Assembly: GCA_031286285.1 (NCBI GenBank)
Contig: JAITUN010000325.1
Span: 1-61,123 of the forward strand
DNA: 61,123 nucleotides
Reading direction: 5' to 3'
From: Bacteroidales bacterium
GTDB taxonomy: Bacteria; Bacteroidota; Bacteroidia; Bacteroidales; WCHB1-69
The notes beneath the pieces are model-generated. The model was not told the origin of the DNA. It did not search any database and saw only the letters and a list, made by a program, of their open reading frames with translations. The translations under genes and the position numbers were made by a program. Positions 4,413 to 20,379 of this stretch are shown here, piece after piece; position 1 is the first letter of the stretch; every line of letters begins with the position of its first letter.

Positions 4413-5504
4413 ATGACAAATCCATTCAAATTTGGCACCATCGTTTCCGAAGATTTTTTCACGAACCGGCAGGTAGAATGTCAAAAATTATCCCAAATTA
4501 TTGCAAGTAGCAATCATGTTATTATGATTGCACCGCGCAGATTTGGTAAAACAAGTTTGGTAAACAAAGTAGTAACTCAAACAAAAAGACCGGTATTGTG
4601 GTTAGATTTACAACTTATTACCAATGTTAGTGATTTTGCTATTCAACTCATGAAACAACTTTTCAAAAAATATCCTTTTGAAAGATTGAAATTTTTGATA
4701 AGCCATTTCAGAATTGTTCCTTCGTTATCAATACATCCCATAACCAACAATGTAGAAATTGCTTTTGAACCCCGTGTGGATAGTTTTGTACATTTGGAAG
4801 ATGTGCTCAATCTCATAGAAAAGTTAGGTGAAGAGCGGGCGCGTCCTATAGTGGTATTTGATGAATTTCAAGAATTAATATCATTGGAAAAATCGTTGGA
4901 TAAGCGTTTGCGTTCTGTGATTCAGTTTCATAAAAACATTAATTATCTTTTCCTTGGAAGCGCAGAATCTTTAATGAAACAAATTTTTGAAAATAAAAAA
5001 TCCCCTTTTTATCATTTTGGGCAATTATTCACTTTGGATAAAATCCCATATCATGATTTTTACAATTTCCTTATTACCCATTTTGAAGTTTTATCTGACA
5101 ATGCTAATGAAATAACAGAGAAAATCTTAGAGTTTTCGAACTGCCATCCCTATTATACACAACAATTGGCGTTTCATATCTGGTTGACATTAGAACATGG
5201 TAATTATTCGGATGATATTATAGAAACCATCGTAGATTACATTATTTTACTGCATAACAATGATTTTGAAAGGTTATGGAATACTTTTAACAATACTGAT
5301 AAAAGAGTATTGATTGAAATAGCATTTGAACAAACAAACCTGTTATCAACTTCAGTATCATACAAAAATGGAAGTTCTACAAGTACTATTTATAGCGCAT
5401 TAAAACGATTAACAGAAAAGGGTATTTTGATTAAAACAGACAAATACGAAATTGATGATCCTTTTTTTAAAAATTGGATTATTAAAAAACGTTCAACTTC
5501 TTAA
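4413..5504 (+). CDS. Archaeal-type AAA/P-loop ATPase with C-terminal winged helix
   Basis: NPFKFG N-terminus, F.NRQ.E, Walker A APRRFGKT, Walker B VVFDEFQ, FLGS, HPYYTQ, terminal Y-I-DPFF-W; -7 box at 4348-4355. Confidence 0.8.
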   Translation: MTNPFKFGTIVSEDFFTNRQVECQKLSQIIASSNHVIMIAPRRFGKTSLVNKVVTQTKRPVLWLDLQLITNVSDFAIQLMKQLFKKYPFERLKFLISHFRIVPSLSIHPITNNVEIAFEPRVDSFVHLEDVLNLIEKLGEERARPIVVFDEFQELISLEKSLDKRLRSVIQFHKNINYLFLGSAESLMKQIFENKKSPFYHFGQLFTLDKIPYHDFYNFLITHFEVLSDNANEITEKILEFSNCHPYYTQQLAFHIWLTLEHGNYSDDIIETIVDYIILLHNNDFERLWNTFNNTDKRVLIEIAFEQTNLLSTSVSYKNGSSTSTIYSALKRLTEKGILIKTDKYEIDDPFFKNWIIKKRSTS

Positions 5505-5539: not shown

Positions 5540-6817
5540 ATGATAAACTCAAAACCCCACATCGGTATTTTCGGGCGGCGCAACAACGGGAAAAGCGCGC
5601 TCATCAATGCACTTACCGGACAAGAGATTGCTATCGTATCTGATGTTCCCGGCACTACCACCGACCCCGTAAAAAAAAGTATGGAGATCTTCGGCATCGG
5701 TCCTGTTGTCCTCATTGATACTGCCGGACTGGACGACGAAAACGAACTGGGGAAAAAACGAGTGGAAAAGACTGAAAACGTGCTGAAACAGATTGATTTG
5801 GCAATCCTTGTGCTTACCAACTACCAATTTGAGGAGATTGAAGAAAAACTGACAGGTAAACTTCGTACGTTGGATACGCCCTTTGTCATCGTTAATAATA
5901 AATCGGATATTACTGCTCCAAAAGATGTTATTATTGAAAACGAAACTGTTATTTCTTTAAGTGCAAAAACAGGAGATGGGCTTCCCGAATTGATAGAAAG
6001 TCTTAAACAAAAGATGCCCGTTTCTGCATATCAAACCCATTCATTATTGGAAGGGATTGTAAAAGAAAACGATACCGTGCTGCTCATTACCCCCATTGAC
6101 AGCGAAGCGCCGGAAGGGAGGCTGATTTTACCGCAAGTACAAACCATCCGCGCCATTTTAGACCAAAACGCGGTTGCAGTGGTTCTAAAGGAGGATAAGA
6201 TACGATCATTCTTTAAGTCAAAAAAAATAACCGCAAAGAGCGCAGAGAGTTTACGCAAAGAGCGCAAAGGGTTAACATTCTTTGTGTCCTTTGTGAAAAC
6301 ACTTTGTGTCCTTTGTGGTAAAAAAAAATCAAGTCAGATAGATTTAGTAATTACCGACAGCCAGGTGTTTAAAATGGTGGCACCGCTCGTTCCGCCGGAG
6401 ATCCCCCTTACCAGTTTCAGTATTTTATTGGCAAGATTCAAAGGTGATTATGAGAACTATCTAAAAGGCACTCCCCAAATAGAAAATCTAAAGGATGGCG
6501 ATTCGGTGCTCATCATGGAGTCGTGCACCCATCTTACCTCCTGCGAAGATATTGGACGCGTGAAGATTCCGAAATGGCTTACCGAATATACAGGGAAAAC
6601 CTTACATTTTGATTTTGTTTCAGGATTAACACCCATAGAAAACATGGAGAAATACGCATTGGTTGTGCAGTGTGGCGGCTGCATGATTACCAAAAAACAA
6701 CTCCTTAATCGGCTAAAACCGGCAGTAGATGCCGGCATTCCCATAACCAACTATGGAATGTTGATTGCATTCATTGAGGGGATTTTTGAACGAGCGACTG
6801 AAAAGATATATGAATAA
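5540..6817 (+). CDS. hydF: [FeFe]-hydrogenase H-cluster maturation GTPase HydF, carrying an in-frame insertion
   Basis: HIGIFGRRNNGKS, GTTTDPV, DTAG, NKSD, PID..AP.GRLILPQVQ, VITDSQ, ESCTH...EDIGRVKIP...QCGGCM, TNYG. Confidence 0.95.
   Translation: MINSKPHIGIFGRRNNGKSALINALTGQEIAIVSDVPGTTTDPVKKSMEIFGIGPVVLIDTAGLDDENELGKKRVEKTENVLKQIDLAILVLTNYQFEEIEEKLTGKLRTLDTPFVIVNNKSDITAPKDVIIENETVISLSAKTGDGLPELIESLKQKMPVSAYQTHSLLEGIVKENDTVLLITPIDSEAPEGRLILPQVQTIRAILDQNAVAVVLKEDKIRSFFKSKKITAKSAESLRKERKGLTFFVSFVKTLCVLCGKKKSSQIDLVITDSQVFKMVAPLVPPEIPLTSFSILLARFKGDYENYLKGTPQIENLKDGDSVLIMESCTHLTSCEDIGRVKIPKWLTEYTGKTLHFDFVSGLTPIENMEKYALVVQCGGCMITKKQLLNRLKPAVDAGIPITNYGMLIAFIEGIFERATEKIYE
6230..6319. repeat. 90-bp imperfect palindrome (40-bp arms, 10-nt loop) inside hydF
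   Basis: Arms 6230-6269 and 6280-6319: 29/40 Watson-Crick pairs plus 7 G-T pairs by manual alignment. Built from CGCAAAGAG/CACAAAGGA 9-mers and flanked by A-tracts. Confidence 0.9.
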
Positions 6818-6845: not shown

Positions 6846-9473
6846 TTAATAGTTTTGGTTTGAACCACCTCCTCTTAATATCATCACAATTCCACTGAGA
6901 AATCTCTTTTTTATTCCTTCCAACGAAAATAAATAGACATCACAGCCATAATAATAAGTTCCTTCAGGGAGATCACGACCTGTTTTTTCATCTTTTCCAT
7001 CCCAGTTAATATCAGGGTTTTCTGTTTTAAAAACCCGCTTTCCCCATCGGTCATGAACCTCTAAATCAATTTTTTTCACATTAATATTTGTGCCATCAAA
7101 AGGTACCCATGTATCGTTTATGCCGTCGCCGTCAGGTGTAAACACATTGGGCAATGAATAAGTTCTACATTGGTCAATATCAATGCAATGTTTTGGCGTC
7201 ATTTCTGTACAATTGCCTGCTTCATCTTTGATAATCATCGCATAACAACCTATTGCCGAAGGGAGATTTTGAATAATATAATAACAAGGACAAGAAGATG
7301 GCCAACAACTATCTACATTAGAAAAAAGGAAAGAATCAATGCAAGAGAAAGGGGTTTGATAATTGGGTTGGTAATAGATATAATATTGATATGCATCTAA
7401 GTAGGAAACAGAATCGGGAAAAACCCACCAAAAAGTAACATTTTCACAATCGGTGGTTATATACGTTGTATCAGGCATATTAGGCGGAATATTGTCCACC
7501 GGTACTCCGCATCGTTTTTGGGAACGATTATAAAGTGGCATCACAGTGTCCGGAATCGTGTATTGCCCCACAGATTTTACATAATAACAATAATTTATGC
7601 CATTGTATACTTCAATATCATCATAAAAATTGTACTCGGTTGTATTAATGGAATCGAACTGTTGGGAGTTTTCGTCGCTACGATAAATAATATAGTCAAT
7701 ATTTTTCCAAGGGACATCCTCATTCCATGATAATTTCAATTTTTTGTCTGTTTCTTCAATTTTCAAGAAGATAGAAGAAGCAGGGTCTGAGTTTTCAATA
7801 TGTACTCTATCACCTGACTTATTTTCTCCCCAAAATTCTATCTGATAAAAATACTGAATCTCTTTAGTATTTAACGATTTATCAATAAATGAAGTGTCTC
7901 GCAATGAAAAAGTTGAAGCAACATATTTAAAATTATTTTTATCATTTGGAGATCGAAATATTTTATATTCAAAATTTGGTCCGGGGAAAATGGTAGTATC
8001 TATTTCCGGTGGAGGGATCCAGGCAACAGCAATTTCTCCGTTACTTTCAGAAGTTTGCATTACATCTACTTTGGAAATCATAGGGGCATCAGTAACAATA
8101 GCAGCACAAGTTTCGTTGGAGACAATACTTTCAGCTCCGTCACTAAAAACTGCAATAATTCGATAGCAGTATTCGCGGCCGTGCGTCAGTGGAGTTACAG
8201 ATCCGTTATCAACATACTCAGTATTTGAAGCATTTGTTTTTGCTAAAAGTTGAAATCTTTCCGAATAGGGGATACCGGTTTCACAAAAATCGGGTTCAAA
8301 ATGAGAAGAATCTGTTTTCCTATAGATATGTATTTCTGTTGCATTCAAACAACAATAATTATCCCATCGTAAAATAATAGAATTTAAAATAGGAAATGAG
8401 GTTAAATTCTGCGGAGCGGGAGCAATCACTTTAATATTAACTGTTTTAAAAGCCGTCAAGTTTACTTGGGGTCCATTATCTGTGGCTTTAAGCACTATTT
8501 GATAAGGAGATTTTTTGATATGTTCGCAAACTGTTTGCCAGATAAAATTGGTTTCTAATGTTGGTTTTCCGGACACATTCACAGGTATTGCGGGCGAAGT
8601 TGCGGTCATAAAAGGCGCACCGGTAGCCGTAAGCGTTACTTGTGTAGATATTGTATCTTTTACTGTAATATCTAATAAAATTAGATTTCCGGAGACAACA
8701 CAAGTGTCGTTGCATAAAATTTGAGGCGGTCTATTGTTACAAGCCGAAATAGTAATTTGTAAATCACGCACTATACTTCCTATAAACTGCCCTCTTCTAT
8801 ATTCGGAAATCAGAATTGCAACATTATACTCACCCTGAATAATTGGGGTTTCCCAAATTAAGTCGCCTGTAATTTCATCAATAGTAATATATTGTGAAGC
8901 TTGAGGGAGTCGGTACCCCGGAATAGGAAGCCCATCCATTCCGCGACAATCAACCAATTTGTAAGATAATGAATCGCCGTCAGGGTCATAAGCACCCACA
9001 TTGTGATAATATGTAACTCCCACACAGCCATTATCTAAAGGCGGATTTAATAATTGAACCGAATTATTGTATCCCAAAAAAGGATTAATAACCACTATAG
9101 TTTCAATAAAAAACGGAATATTTACTGAATTTGGGATGTTTATAATTCCGGCATTTCGGTTTGGATCTTCAAATGTAACGGAAAAGATGCCTGAGGAAGA
9201 AAAAGTGTGTGTGGCAACATAGGTGTTTTTAGAAATATCAGGTGCAACAGAGATTTTAGAAAGCCGTTGAATAGTGCTACTTGAATTGTCACCCCAAAAC
9301 ACTTCGATTTCAGGTCTATCTGCCGGACTTGGAGTGTATGTATAGGTAATAATTGTAAATTTGTATGTTAATCCGCTTTGATGTTCATATGTGATTTCGC
9401 CTGCCCGTTGATGTGTAGCGAAACCGGCATTCCAAAGTAAAATGAACCCCAAAAATAGTAATAGTTTACGCAT
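6846..9473 (-). CDS. T9SS cargo with gliding-motility-associated (type B, CHU_C-like) C-terminal domain and FN3-like repeats
   Basis: Signal peptide MRKLLLFLG...AGFA-THQRAGEITY; DPDGDSLSY; C-terminal LPNVFTPDGDGIND...DRWGK.VF...WDGK...GTYYY. Start at ATG 9473. Confidence 0.85.
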   Translation of the reverse strand: MRKLLLFLGFILLWNAGFATHQRAGEITYEHQSGLTYKFTIITYTYTPSPADRPEIEVFWGDNSSSTIQRLSKISVAPDISKNTYVATHTFSSSGIFSVTFEDPNRNAGIINIPNSVNIPFFIETIVVINPFLGYNNSVQLLNPPLDNGCVGVTYYHNVGAYDPDGDSLSYKLVDCRGMDGLPIPGYRLPQASQYITIDEITGDLIWETPIIQGEYNVAILISEYRRGQFIGSIVRDLQITISACNNRPPQILCNDTCVVSGNLILLDITVKDTISTQVTLTATGAPFMTATSPAIPVNVSGKPTLETNFIWQTVCEHIKKSPYQIVLKATDNGPQVNLTAFKTVNIKVIAPAPQNLTSFPILNSIILRWDNYCCLNATEIHIYRKTDSSHFEPDFCETGIPYSERFQLLAKTNASNTEYVDNGSVTPLTHGREYCYRIIAVFSDGAESIVSNETCAAIVTDAPMISKVDVMQTSESNGEIAVAWIPPPEIDTTIFPGPNFEYKIFRSPNDKNNFKYVASTFSLRDTSFIDKSLNTKEIQYFYQIEFWGENKSGDRVHIENSDPASSIFLKIEETDKKLKLSWNEDVPWKNIDYIIYRSDENSQQFDSINTTEYNFYDDIEVYNGINYCYYVKSVGQYTIPDTVMPLYNRSQKRCGVPVDNIPPNMPDTTYITTDCENVTFWWVFPDSVSYLDAYQYYIYYQPNYQTPFSCIDSFLFSNVDSCWPSSCPCYYIIQNLPSAIGCYAMIIKDEAGNCTEMTPKHCIDIDQCRTYSLPNVFTPDGDGINDTWVPFDGTNINVKKIDLEVHDRWGKRVFKTENPDINWDGKDEKTGRDLPEGTYYYGCDVYLFSLEGIKKRFLSGIVMILRGGGSNQNY

Positions 9474-10515
9474 GGTTTTGTTTGAGTAAAGAAAATAGTT
9501 TTTCATTAAAAGCAGATTCATTTTCTAAAAAAGCAATTTCAATAGGAATTGTATCATATTCAGGCATGTTTTCAAAAGTTTGTAATCGGGTAGCATCTTT
9601 TTCAGTGGTAATAACGGTACAATTTTCACCGCCCAATTTTTCTTTCAGAAGAATTATTTTTTCTATATCTTTTCTTGTAAACGAGTGGTGGTCAGGGAAA
9701 TGAAGTTTGTGAATAGTTTGGTATTGAGTTTCTAAATATTTCACTAAAGGTACAGGGTTTGCAATACCGGTAATGAGAAGGCATTGAGAATTTTGAATTT
9801 CATCTTTTCGGTATGGCTGAAATTCTGCCTCAGTCGAACTATAGTTCTTATACTCTATCCTTGTAAAAAACACCTCTTGATATGGTTTTGGCTTCAGTTT
9901 TCTCAAAAATTGTTCTTTTTCTTTTTCTGATAATTTTTCAGGACACTTGGTAACAATAATAATATCGGCATATTTTGATGCGCAACTAAACTCTCTCAAA
10001 CTTCCGGATGGTAATGGGAAATCATTAAAGTAAGGGCGTTCAAATTCTGTTAGAAGTATTCTTAAAGAATAGTTTACGGATAAATGTTGGTATGCGTCAT
10101 CTAAAATAACGAGTTCTAATTCAGGATTTTTTTGTAGTAGTTTTTGGATGCCGATTTTCCTTTTCTCGCATACAGCAACCTCAATATTTGGAAATTTGGT
10201 AACATATTGCATCGGTTCATCGCCAATGATTTTGTAACTGAGGTTTTGTGTTTCGTGGGCATTGATATAACCTTTTGTTTTTCTTTTGTACCCACGACTT
10301 AATATGGCAACATTGTGATTTCGAGACAAAAGTTTTGCTATATATTCCACATGAGGGGTTTTTCCGGTACCACCCACCCGCAGATTGCCCACGCAAATAG
10401 TTGGAATTGTAAATGTTTCAGGAGTTTTATAGGAATTTCTGAGGAAAGCAGTTGTCATTCCATACACGATGGAAAGAGGAGAAAGGAGAATGGAGAATGG
10501 AGATTTGTTTTTCAT
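9466..10515 (-). CDS. lpxK: Tetraacyldisaccharide (lipid A) 4'-kinase
   Basis: VGNL.VGGTGKTP, SRGYKR, GDEP, LDDAYQH, P.G.LRE, GIANP, FPDHH, TTEKDA. The -7 box TACCTTTG (10520-10527) lies just before ATG 10515, so the mRNA is probably leaderless. Confidence 0.95.
   Translation of the reverse strand: MKNKSPFSILLSPLSIVYGMTTAFLRNSYKTPETFTIPTICVGNLRVGGTGKTPHVEYIAKLLSRNHNVAILSRGYKRKTKGYINAHETQNLSYKIIGDEPMQYVTKFPNIEVAVCEKRKIGIQKLLQKNPELELVILDDAYQHLSVNYSLRILLTEFERPYFNDFPLPSGSLREFSCASKYADIIIVTKCPEKLSEKEKEQFLRKLKPKPYQEVFFTRIEYKNYSSTEAEFQPYRKDEIQNSQCLLITGIANPVPLVKYLETQYQTIHKLHFPDHHSFTRKDIEKIILLKEKLGGENCTVITTEKDATRLQTFENMPEYDTIPIEIAFLENESAFNEKLFSLLKQNHA
10476..10503 (-). repeat. Heptamer tandem (TCTCCAT x2, TCTCCTT, TCTCCTC) encoding the LpxK N-terminus
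   Basis: Plus strand GAGGAGA AAGGAGA ATGGAGA ATGGAGA. Confidence 0.65.
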
Positions 10516-17669: not shown

Positions 17670-18027
17670 ATTTCATTGATTTTAACGCTTTTGCCAACTG
17701 GTCCGGACAGGAAGTCGTTTTGTCTCCGCAGATAATCCCTTCCAATTTTGCAATCGCAGAATCTATCTGCATCCCTTCAGCTAATCTTGACACTCCTTGC
17801 GTATTACCCGCACACCCCTTGGTGATTTTTATGCTTCGAATTGTATCATTTACCACAGAAATATCAAACTGCTTGCTGCAAACTCCTTCCGGAATATAGG
17901 TAATATTTTTTGTTATCATCTCTTTTTGATTTAATTTGGTTTGATTATTACAATTTAATATGCAGAATGCGAAAACTGCTAATATTATTAATTTTGAATT
18001 TTGAATTTTGAGTTTTGAATTATTCAT
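17668..18027 (-). CDS. TIGR03905-like TSCPD-domain protein with possible lipoprotein-like N-terminal extension (alternative start 17919)
   Basis: Y.P.GVCS..., GC.GN.QG...L.EGM, L.GI.CG.K.TSCPDQLAKAL. Confidence 0.85.
   Translation of the reverse strand: MNNSKLKIQNSKLIILAVFAFCILNCNNQTKLNQKEMITKNITYIPEGVCSKQFDISVVNDTIRSIKITKGCAGNTQGVSRLAEGMQIDSAIAKLEGIICGDKTTSCPDQLAKALKSMK
17954..18019. repeat. Heptamer tandem TTTTGAA x4 (17992-18019) with a degenerate inverted arm (17954-17974)
   Basis: TTTTGAA TTTTGAA TTTTGAG TTTTGAA; opposite arm TTTAATA TGCAGAA TGCGAAA. Confidence 0.7.
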
Positions 18028-18040
18028 ATTTATTTTTTAA

Positions 18041-18075
18041 GCACAGAGACACAAAGAACACAAAGTTTCACAGAG
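18041..18075 (+). repeat. Intergenic copy of the CACAAAG/CACAGAG repeat family
   Basis: GCACAGAGACACAAAGAACACAAAGTTTCACAGAG; same units as the hydF and addB-like copies. Confidence 0.75.
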
Positions 18076-18091
18076 ATTTTTATACTTAATC

Positions 18092-18135: not shown

Positions 18136-20379
18136 TTAATTTCTATGCGGGCGATGGTTATGTCCTCCTCTATGCTCTCCTCTATTTTCTCCTCTATACT
18201 CTCCTCTTTGAGGGCGTTCTCCTCTTTGAGGTCTTTCTCTTGGGGGCGCGTCAACCCAGCCTTCCGGTTTAGGCAACAAGGCTTTATGCGAGAGTTTATA
18301 TTTTCCTTTATCATCAATAGCCACGAGTTTAACTTTAATCTCATCTCCTTCTTTCAATACATCTGTTACATTTTCAATGCGTTTATATGCAATTTCAGAA
18401 ACGTGCAGCAATCCGTCTGTATTGGGCAAAAATTCAACAAAAGCTCCAAAAGCCTGAATATTTTTTACTACGCCGTCATACACTTCGCCCACTTCGGGAA
18501 CTGTAGTGATTAACTTAATTTTTGCGATAGCGCGTTTAATGTCCTCCAAATTAGCAGCTGCTACATCCACATAACCCATACCATCTTTCTCTTCAATGTT
18601 GATCACAGTGTTGGTTTCTCGTTGCATCTCCTGAATAATTTTTCCGGCAGGTCCTATCACAGCGCCGATAAAATCTTTCGGTATTATTATTTGCACGATA
18701 CGCGGCACAAATGGTTTGTAATCTTCTCGTGATTCCGGCATCGCTTCGTTGATTTTATCCAAAATATGCAACCTGCCTTTTCTTGCCTGTTCCAACGCTT
18801 CCGCCATAATTTCAGAAGATAATCCGTTTATTTTAATATCCATTTGGCAAGCGGTAATACCGTCTTTAGTTCCGCACACCTTAAAGTCCATATCTCCTAA
18901 GTGGTCTTCATCGCCCAAAATATCTGACAGGATGGCGTATTTTCCGGTTTTTTCATCTGTAATTAACCCCATGGCAATTCCTGACACCGGTTTTAGGATC
19001 TTAACACCACAATCTAACAATGCTAATGTTCCTGCACAAACAGTTGCCATTGAGGAGCTTCCGTTTGATTCTAAAATGTCGGAAACAATTCGTACAGTAT
19101 AAGGAAAATCGGGGCTGTCAAACGGAATCATCGGTTTTAATGCTCGGTGTGCCAAGTTTCCGTGTCCAATTTCGCGGCGTCCGGCGCTTCCTACTCTTTT
19201 CACTTCGCCTACCGAAAACGGCGGGAAGTTGTAGTGCAGAATAAAACGGCTGGATCCTTCAATTACGGCGCCATCAATCGTCTGTTCATCCAATTTTGTT
19301 CCTAACGTGCAAGTAGTTAGCGATTGAGTTTCGCCTCTTGTGAAAATGGCAGAGCCGTGCGCGGAGGGTAGATAATCGGTTTCAATCCAAATAGGGCGAA
19401 TCTGATCTAAATCACGACCATCCAAACGGGTTCTGTCGTTCAAAATCATATTTCGCATGGCGTCATATTCAACGTCATGGTAATAACGTTTTACCAATGG
19501 TGTTTTCTCTTCGCGCTCCTCTTCAGGGATTGTTTCCAAAAACTCATTCAAAATCGCTTCAAACGCATCACTTCTTTCATTTTTTGTGGTTTGTGCTTTC
19601 GCAATAGCATATACTTTGTTGTAAGTGGTTTTGTGTACCAACTCGCGCAGCTCTTCGTCATTATTTTCGTGACAATATATTCGTTTTGGGTTTGCTTTCT
19701 CTACCATCGCCGCTAAGTCTAACTGTGCCTGGCACTGAATCTTAATAGCCTCGTGGGCAAAGTTAAGCGCTTCCACCATATCGGCTTCAGAAATCTCTTT
19801 CATTTCTCCTTCTACCATCATGATATTTTCCAATGAGGCTGCCACAATCATATCAATATCACTGTTTTCCATCTCTTGCACCGTGGGGTTAATCACAAGT
19901 CGACCTTCGATTCTACCCACACGTACTTCCGAAATCGGTCCTAAGAAAGGGATGTCGGAAACGGATAATGCGGAGGATGCAGCCAAACAAGCCAGTGCAT
20001 CTGGGAGGTTGTTTTTGTCGCCGGAAATCAGTGTAACCAACACTTGTGTTTCTGCGTGAAAGTCATTTGGGAAAAGGGGTCTGAGCGCTCTGTCCACCAA
20101 CCGAGCAATTAAAATCTCGTATTCTGAAGGTCTGCTTTCTCGTTTAAAGAATCCGCCGGGAAATCGTCCCACCGCAGCGTATTTTTCTTGATATTCTACT
20201 TGTAGCGGCATAAAGTCGGTATTTTCTGCCGCCTCTTTTTTGCAACATACTGTAGCGAGCACCATTGTGTCGCCCATTCTAACTACGGCTGAGCCGTCGG
20301 CTTGTTTTGCCAATTTTCCAGTTTCAATGGTAACTTCTCTTCCGTCACCCAGTTCAAATTTTTTTGTAATTCCAATCAT
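18136..20379 (-). CDS. pnp: Polyribonucleotide nucleotidyltransferase (PNPase)
   Basis: [65 protein letters not shown]; KH and S1 domains. Confidence 0.98.

Follow-up and report, generated by a model that had tools for sequence, protein, structure and literature searches.

A palindromic heptamer-array element in frame in the hydF gene of a termite-gut Bacteroidales lineage

Palindromic selfish DNA lying in frame within genes is a textbook oddity of Rickettsia. In this study we show that in-frame palindromic DNA, probably selfish as well, is present in a termite-gut lineage of Bacteroidota, where one element sits in hydF, the gene of the [FeFe]-hydrogenase maturation GTPase, and leaves its reading frame open. 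The gene lies on a stretch of 61,123 nucleotides (contig JAITUN010000325.1 of assembly GCA_031286285.1, a Bacteroidales bacterium), called the window in the following. The Rickettsia palindromic elements (RPEs; Ogata et al. 2000, as treated in the relevant section of a 2024 review, PMC10969869) are short palindromic repeats present in many copies. Housekeeping genes with nothing in common carry them in frame, at positions that the protein fold can accommodate; they are translated as an extra peptide and occur at various stages of decay in related genomes. That section calls the occurrence of such in-frame elements in other prokaryotes only ‘conceivable’ (PMC10969869). The family to which the hydF element belongs resembles the RPEs in these points; the likeness is one of behaviour only. 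There are differences as well: the host is a termite-gut member of the Bacteroidota, whereas Rickettsia is an alphaproteobacterium with an obligate intracellular life, each arm is an array of the heptamers CGCAAAG/CACAAAG, and the element measures about 90-110 bp compared to ∼150 bp in RPEs. Furthermore, only ∼6 of 45 loci are in genes, and the arms are also found around small nuclease genes and in a wide range of phyla.

Other repeats share single traits with the hydF family. ORF-bearing intervening sequences of 23S rRNA consist of a small gene with an inverted arm on either side, the two arms pairing into a long stem; they are located in rRNA and are excised by RNase III without rejoining. 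A similar arrangement is seen in the draft genome from which the window derives (G000; 327 contigs, 6% contamination), where genes of TIGR02436, which we take to be the IVS-protein family, are flanked by heptamer arrays, whereas the hydF hairpin lies inside a protein-coding frame that stays open. Bacterial MITEs (miniature transposable elements with inverted repeats; ERIC, Correia/NEMIS, BOX and Anabaena elements) are, in the review's account of them (PMC10969869), small elements without coding capacity that end in inverted repeats, are present in many copies and now and then form in-frame fusions; RNase III cleaves the hairpin transcripts of some of them. The hydF family has the small size (about 90-135 nt), the copy number and the terminal inverted repeats (39 bp; 17 two-armed clusters) of a MITE. 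However, we found neither a clear target-site duplication nor a cognate transposase for it, and the whole element is one long heptamer-array hairpin. Repetitive extragenic palindromes (REPs), their mosaic elements (BIMEs) and the REP-associated tyrosine transposases (RAYTs, Y1 type) are a further palindromic and repetitive system. In the passages devoted to them, REPs measure 14-40 nt and seldom overlap protein-coding regions (PMC12306157), and most have a GTAG or CGTC tag at one end (PMC3733652). The hydF-family elements are longer (90-110 nt), start with (A)ACCGCAAAG and have no GTAG/CGTC head. None of the 8 Y1_Tnp loci over the cut-off in G000 adjoins the arms; only on contigs C87 and C212 do both occur together, more than 9 kb apart. 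Membership in a REP/RAYT system (REPtron) was rejected because of size, end sequence and the lack of an adjoining Y1_Tnp gene. Finally, the TAACTGA arrays of Beggiatoaceae, Cyanobacteria and Bacteroidetes are likewise built from one heptamer, are patchy across distant phyla, often stand just upstream of start codons and have no known spreading route, according to the parts of PMC4679880 that describe them. They differ by their heptamer, by being direct arrays instead of inverted hairpin arms, and by carrying stops, so that they are not readable through. We found no published description of CGCAAAG/CACAAAG heptamer hairpins in the literature (supplements excluded); matches to the heptamers were primers and shRNAs. 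In the architecture of its arms the hydF family is unlike the RPE and MITE families considered here, and it recurs at the same protein linkers.

The features of the hydF element are the following (window positions, with the basis in brackets).

5540..6817, + strand: hydF, [FeFe]-hydrogenase maturation GTPase, 425 aa, intact (ORF, TIGR03918, Pfam, AF2 model)
6215..6220, + strand: AAGTCA, first copy (read from sequence)
6221..6328, + strand: in-frame insert of 36 codons, residues 228-263, absent from canonical HydF (LPQVQ-TDSQ spacing, homologue linkers, pLDDT)
6230..6272, + strand: left arm, two units of 22 nt with four CGCA(A/G)AG heptamers in all (RNA fold, repeat structure)
6273..6276, + strand: hairpin loop of 4 nt (RNA fold)
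6277..6319, + strand: right arm, four CTTTGTG heptamers, nine G-T wobbles with the left arm (RNA fold)
6331..6336, + strand: AAGTCA, second copy (read from sequence)

The insert is 108 nt long, a multiple of three, and has no stop in the hydF frame. A preliminary description of this DNA had placed a hairpin here within an intact ORF, and both hold. Its in-frame insert of about 33 aa is present as well, with a size of 36 aa. RNA folding of 6215-6335 gives a single hairpin with 39 pairs (14 G-C, 16 A-U and 9 G-U) and four mismatches, each 1x1 (A/C twice, A/A twice). The long paired arms of the description are thus real, at 39/43 pairs and not 36/40, and so is its excess of G-T pairs among the arm differences, at 9/13 instead of seven of 11. 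The RNA energy is −48.1 kcal/mol, whereas shuffled sequences average −20.7 (z −8.6) and none of 200 equals it; with DNA parameters the same hairpin reaches −19.1 (z −3.0; 2 of 200 shuffles as good). Each arm is made of two 22-nt units with two heptamers per unit, and the A-rich flanks noted before are runs of A8 (6220-6227) and A9 (6320-6328). An Rfam scan of 5900-6700 returned nothing at the gathering threshold; the best match was P14 sRNA on the minus strand, with 24.5 bits against 45.

At the protein level the insert falls into the dimerisation domain. HydF scores 481.1 bits with TIGR03918 (NCBIfam; cut-off 325.55) and this match is split in two after residue 227; among the Pfam domains MMR_HSR1 (PF01926), HydF_dimer (PF18128) and HydF_tetramer (PF18133), the HydF_dimer match is broken at residue 229. 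The AlphaFold (AF2) model has a mean pLDDT of 83 and its fold matches the solved HydF structures 5KH0, 3QQ5 and 5LAD. The structure prediction that had been proposed as a check gives the insert a pLDDT of ∼50 and two weak helices; the helix before it (218-228) and the strand after it (269-272) are both modelled with confidence. The canonical linker at this site has ∼10 aa, in agreement with the earlier statement that typical HydF has only a short segment here. Residues C329, H331, C378 and C381, presumably the ligands of the [4Fe-4S] cluster in the C-terminal domain, are invariant across 60 homologues and present in this protein; the P-loop is also kept, and the same genome encodes HydE, HydA and a HydG fragment cut off by a contig end. 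HydF therefore looks functional, as judged from these genes and residues. Run X1 is a termite-gut metagenome, and a 5969-nt contig of its Logan assembly spans 6052-6700 at even depth, with 0 differences and no joint. Hence the insert is not a quirk of one assembler, although X1 may be the source sample, which makes the Logan contig a second assembly and not a second sample.

Copies of the element are dispersed through the genome. An arm-motif scan of G000 gave 45 clusters, 17 of them two-armed, and 0 hits in the shuffled genome; this was the copy count called for earlier. The pattern CRCAAAGN{1,4}CRCAAAG has 68 matches compared to 0 for the reversed control, and BLAST of 110 nt finds arms 87-93% identical on many contigs (C174, C231, C206 and C101 among them), with 90-93% identity of the hydF left arm to the arms on C174 and C101. 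The hydF insert is therefore a member of a multi-copy dispersed family. A canonical copy is laid out as T-run, (A)ACCGCAAAG..CGCAAAG, 6 nt, CGCAAAG..CGCAAAG, loop, inverse and A-run, in the flavours CGC/GCG, CAC/GTG and CACAGAG. Several copies sit at contig ends (C319, C312, C212 and C280), which indicates that the family breaks assemblies. On window 6224-6331, the summed contig depth of three termite-gut runs (X1-X3) rises about tenfold over the arms; many short contigs of these runs match the arms only and then continue into unrelated sequence. The repeat family is thus abundant in the termite-gut habitat beyond the G000 organism.

We searched 41 genomes (G000 and 40 relatives) for hydF, fetched 12 loci and measured 11. 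The distance from LPQVQ to TDSQ was as follows.

7 of the 11 loci (G002, G004 and five other genera): 129 nt
L006, G001: 138 nt
L004, G006: 153 nt
L002, G005: 234 nt
Window, G000: 237 nt

Among the best 120 homologues from a protein search 118 were measurable, 71 close (67-100% identity) and 47 distant (56-60%). The linker spacing is 37 residues in 62 of the 118 and 73 in HydF of G000. All 47 distant homologues have the canonical spacing of 37, but only 15 of the 71 close ones do. In the other close homologues the linker holds an element that is complete, halved or decayed, in differing frames and subfamilies. The alignment gap unique to this protein that had been expected is hence not what we found. 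Full elements in frame are present in P0001 (the G000 gene), P0002, P0071, P0009 (G005 type) and P0023/P0035, the last pair with a CAC-type element read as HKVHKV.... Apart from P0001 these proteins come from other metagenomes; P0002, from a separate source (jgi) and 86% identical, has a homologous insert in the same frame. P0004 and P0014 keep the left arm only, and remnants of 7 aa occur too. The spacing is 44 in thirteen proteins, the majority of which show a recognisable remnant of the type FFxAKxAKDxQRxQ. The DNA of three full copies was aligned and has identical left and right boundaries. The canonical linker is wholly replaced, so that filled and empty sites are not alignable base by base.

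How often the linker was hit can be estimated from the elements themselves. Three reading frames and two heptamer subfamilies are found at this single linker, and a precise restoration of the ancestral linker is implausible; these points, and not the tree, suggest at least three independent insertions followed by deletional decay. In a tree built with the linker removed, the linker states are scattered and ancestral-type linkers are interspersed; 29 of 69 inner branches are open in this 74-row FastTree, and the protein and DNA trees of six congeners are star-like.

Some lineages hold a different, very short element, a small palindrome unrelated to the heptamer hairpins, at the same linker. In G004 (L005) it is a perfect 20-nt palindrome read as ...VENFRP..., and related peptides (RRALSL, GAENLLPLP) occur at the linker of other homologues. 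The homologues concerned are P0026, P0061, P0062, P0064, P0020, P0027, P0034, P0038 and P0041. More than one palindrome family uses this site.

Besides hydF, five further clusters of G000 lie within long ORFs.

C87: full element in an FGAM-synthase-like, PurL-like gene (Pfam AIRS_C, FGAR-AT linker)
C146: full element in a cytochrome c assembly protein gene, CcsA-like
C35: half element in a CoA-enzyme activase gene
C207: remnant in a SpoU methylase gene
C225: short piece of the element in a gene for which no Pfam family was found

Alignments show that the PurL-like and CcsA-like inserts occupy linkers which are short in some congeners and which hold different repeat versions, sometimes in another frame, in other congeners. 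The evidence for the inserts on C35, C207 and C225 is the repeat sequence, joined for C35 and C207 by a Pfam envelope stretched relative to the profile. In the congener G002 the CcsA-like gene is split across contigs C109 and C291, and the break falls precisely in the linker where G000 has the element, which suggests that the repeat broke that assembly. About 6 of 45 clusters inside genes is far below the expectation for a mostly coding genome, which we assume here as is general for bacteria, and fits with selection purging most intragenic hits. Whether the element is built to be read through is a separate matter: in 13 two-armed copies, picked by eye from the 17, open frames number 27 of 78, compared to 25% in random 110-nt genome segments, and we rejected an ‘ORF-friendly element’ as a strong property.

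Taken together, the hydF insert is probably a cargo-less, dispersed palindromic repeat that is tolerated and translated, an RPE-like selfish element. This agrees with the RPE/MITE-like element tolerated in the dimerisation domain of the preliminary description, given the multi-copy family, the other in-frame copies and a canonical HydF without insert. The element, two arms of CGCAAAG/CACAAAG arrays normally framed by a T-run and an A-run, would have landed in a short surface linker of the dimerisation domain, between helix 218-228 and strand 269-272. As it has no in-frame stop and a length that is a multiple of three, it would be transcribed and translated with hydF and would add a poorly ordered loop of 36 residues, Lys/Arg-rich and hydrophobic, which HydF tolerates. 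It would persist as selfish DNA since the linker is permissive, and not as a functional module. The same linker has been hit repeatedly in related bacteria, with inserts decaying by deletion to short remnants. For its mobility the element may rely on the GxxExxY PD-(D/E)XK nuclease genes found between such arms at other loci. Proliferation and deterioration at the HydF linker is the pattern described for the RPEs. The data show that the insert belongs to the family, lies in frame, is lacking in canonical HydF, has counterparts that recur and decay at this site and is backed by a second assembly; its translation, its neutrality and its way of moving are what we infer.

Several observations weigh against this explanation. 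There is no clean target-site duplication around the insert on inspection of the sequence: the AAGTCA pair has a spacing of 116 nt at unequal distances. The left flank of the hydF copy is an A-run where family members have a T-run. For both reasons transposition is only a candidate route of insertion. The homologue tree is poorly resolved, which makes the number of independent insertions uncertain. Translation is deduced only from the preserved frame, and this is partly circular because broken genes would not be retrieved as full-length homologues. The enrichment of open frames is mild. Finally, the unusual nine G-U pairs and the more stable sense RNA could point to a role at the RNA level, which we take up below.

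The small nuclease genes might explain how the repeats spread. Genes of the GxxExxY family (TIGR04256, Pfam PDDEXK_3) or their remnants lie exactly between inverted CGCAAAG/CACAAAG arms at three of the five GxxExxY loci in G000.

C259:3400-4100 (L137): full-length GxxExxY gene
C101:2560-3000 (L138): truncated GxxExxY gene
C206:4220-4700 (L139): truncated GxxExxY gene

These loci look like a cargo-carrying version of the hairpin. The other two GxxExxY loci and the four-helix-bundle (TIGR02436) genes are flanked by other inverted or tandem heptamer-like arrays. The GxxExxY gene at C143:7380-8029 has its own hairpin of CACAGAT/ATCTGTG units on each side, a further arm flavour. The TIGR02436 genes C319:40144-40467 and C187:12551-12874 are flanked by long tandem heptamer arrays, with GTTACGA on both sides of one and GATTTAC and its inverse around the other.

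Other genomes of the order supplied 40 GxxExxY genes for comparison. Two or more arm heptamers stand on either side of 10 of these genes and on a single side of another 5; 13 of the 40 have an exact inverted flank match of at least 12 nt, compared to a mean of 1.0 and a maximum of 4 when flanks of different loci were paired as a control. Across the 41 genomes, arm count and GxxExxY count are correlated (Spearman 0.67) and a GxxExxY gene is present in 16 of 18 arm-rich and 5 of 23 arm-poor genomes, figures that overstate the support as related genomes are not independent. Exceptions exist, such as G006, which lacks a GxxExxY gene but has 60 arm matches. When the whole collection was scanned for three spaced CGCAAAG heptamers, at least 119 loci were obtained, where chance would give ∼4 by our own arithmetic at equal base frequencies. 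By their record titles, the matches listed include Acidobacteriota, Bacteroidota (with Flavobacterium isolates), Chloroflexota, Planctomycetota, Cyanobacteria and others. An inverted heptamer follows within 140 nt downstream in at least 53 (53 of the 119 matches listed). Within 200-nt flanks of the 119 matches listed, a home-made HMM from 3 sequences found GxxExxY in 2, and the four-helix-bundle HMM found 0. The link between arms and GxxExxY genes is hence clear within the order and not shown more widely; the cassette link overall is suggestive, as read from gene and repeat positions.

The GxxExxY family is listed with function unknown (PMC3424549). In the literature its name turned up in 3 papers, one of which gives it just a passing mention. 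From the shared arms we infer that the hydF hairpin may be an empty form of these cassettes, and we hypothesize that the nuclease could move them. To our knowledge, no transposase activity is known for the family. A broader proposal, which we regard as tentative and on balance doubtful, is that the hairpins would be cargo-less derivatives of unrecognised selfish cassettes spanning phyla, with a GxxExxY nuclease or four-helix-bundle gene in the loop of a long inverted repeat made of heptamer arrays, the nuclease moving full and empty forms alike, and repeated homing into permissive linkers.

A different explanation is that the hairpin acts in the hydF mRNA, where RNase III cleavage or ribosome stalling would tune or silence HydF and the G-U pairs would be kept since only the sense strand folds. 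In the hydF copy the G of every one of the nine wobbles belongs to the left arm and the T to the right arm. The sense fold (−48.1 kcal/mol) is 22 kcal/mol more stable than the antisense fold (−25.9) and has 9 G-U pairs compared to 2. RNase III is encoded in the genome, and its cleavage of Correia-element transcripts is documented in the review's treatment of these elements (PMC10969869). Wobbles also outnumber transition mismatches 9 to 2 (one-sided binomial p ∼0.03, own arithmetic), an excess that is no more than mildly unusual and may stem from events that are not independent of one another. However, the strand bias is not general: of the five full hairpins inside genes the sense strand is more stable in two (hydF and PurL-like), and the antisense strand in three, by 1.2 (CcsA-like), 11 (L196) and 2.3 kcal/mol (L218). 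A sense-strand G-U bias as a family rule was therefore rejected, and since the bias is absent in three of five copies we do not take the wobbles to indicate that an mRNA structure is conserved; the preliminary description had called them expected if ssDNA or RNA structure matters. The right arm of hydF simply has the CTTTGTG form, by which an already existing subfamily is defined, and the change is CpG to TpG. A single conversion event or CpG deamination could suffice for the four C-to-T differences that turn CGC/GCG heptamers into the CAC/GTG form. P0002 encodes Ala where HydF of G000 encodes Val at two inner heptamers, so at least two of the changes are recent. Moreover, cleavage would destroy the message of an otherwise conserved gene, and the strict preservation of the frame would be unexplained if RNA alone mattered. 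An effect at the RNA level is possible for the hydF copy alone; as an account of the insert we consider it unlikely.

It is much less probable still that the protein has put the insert to use, the CxxC and the Lys/Arg patch of the extra loop changing HydF dimerisation, cluster handling or partner binding. The insert does lie in the dimerisation domain, and three independent full inserts (P0001, P0002 and P0071) retain the ending LC(V/A)LCGKK in frame. This ending, however, is what CTTTGYG..CTTTGYGGTAAAAAA encodes in the hydF frame, and its retention needs no selection. The CxxC that had been said to be added to an Fe-S scaffold is thus present, as an automatic translation of the CTTTGYG repeats, and nothing indicates metal binding. 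In other lineages the element is read in other frames as unrelated peptides (NRKVRKE..., HKVHKV...) or is half or nearly all lost; the low pLDDT of the insert and its absence from all of the more distant homologues also argue against co-option. Least credible of all is an assembly artefact or a decaying pseudogene: family repeats at contig ends do disturb assembly and the draft is fragmented and partly contaminated, but the second assembler's contig, the homologous insert of P0002, the intact ORF and the conserved residues speak against both.

A second member of the family is found elsewhere in the window.

18035..18080, + strand: solitary arm, T-run followed by CACAGAG/CACAAAG heptamers

This arm has the end of pnp (18139-20379, minus strand) close by on one side and the start of a TSCPD-domain gene (17671-18027, minus strand) on the other. 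About four ATTTTGA-like heptamers stand directly before the start of the latter gene, within 17990-18080, and adjoin the solitary arm. The hydF gene stands alone in the window, with hydE on contig C47 and hydG truncated at the end of contig C271. Upstream is an ATPase_2/AAA-type gene (4413-5504) and downstream, on the opposite strand, the gene of an 891-aa protein with a CHU_C type IX secretion signal (6846-9521).

In conclusion, RPE-like behaviour is seen in a gut-symbiont lineage of Bacteroidota and in several housekeeping genes. Full, half and decayed inserts at one linker in dozens of homologues show how a protein loop is created and worn down. As the repeats break assemblies and yield spurious small ‘hypothetical proteins’, recognising them improves annotation. 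The arms common to hairpins and PD-(D/E)XK cassettes provide a lead on the role of those widespread small genes and on the spread of the hairpins. If the cassette proposal were true, such cassettes would be a steady source of new loop sequence in the housekeeping proteins of Bacteroidota and other phyla.

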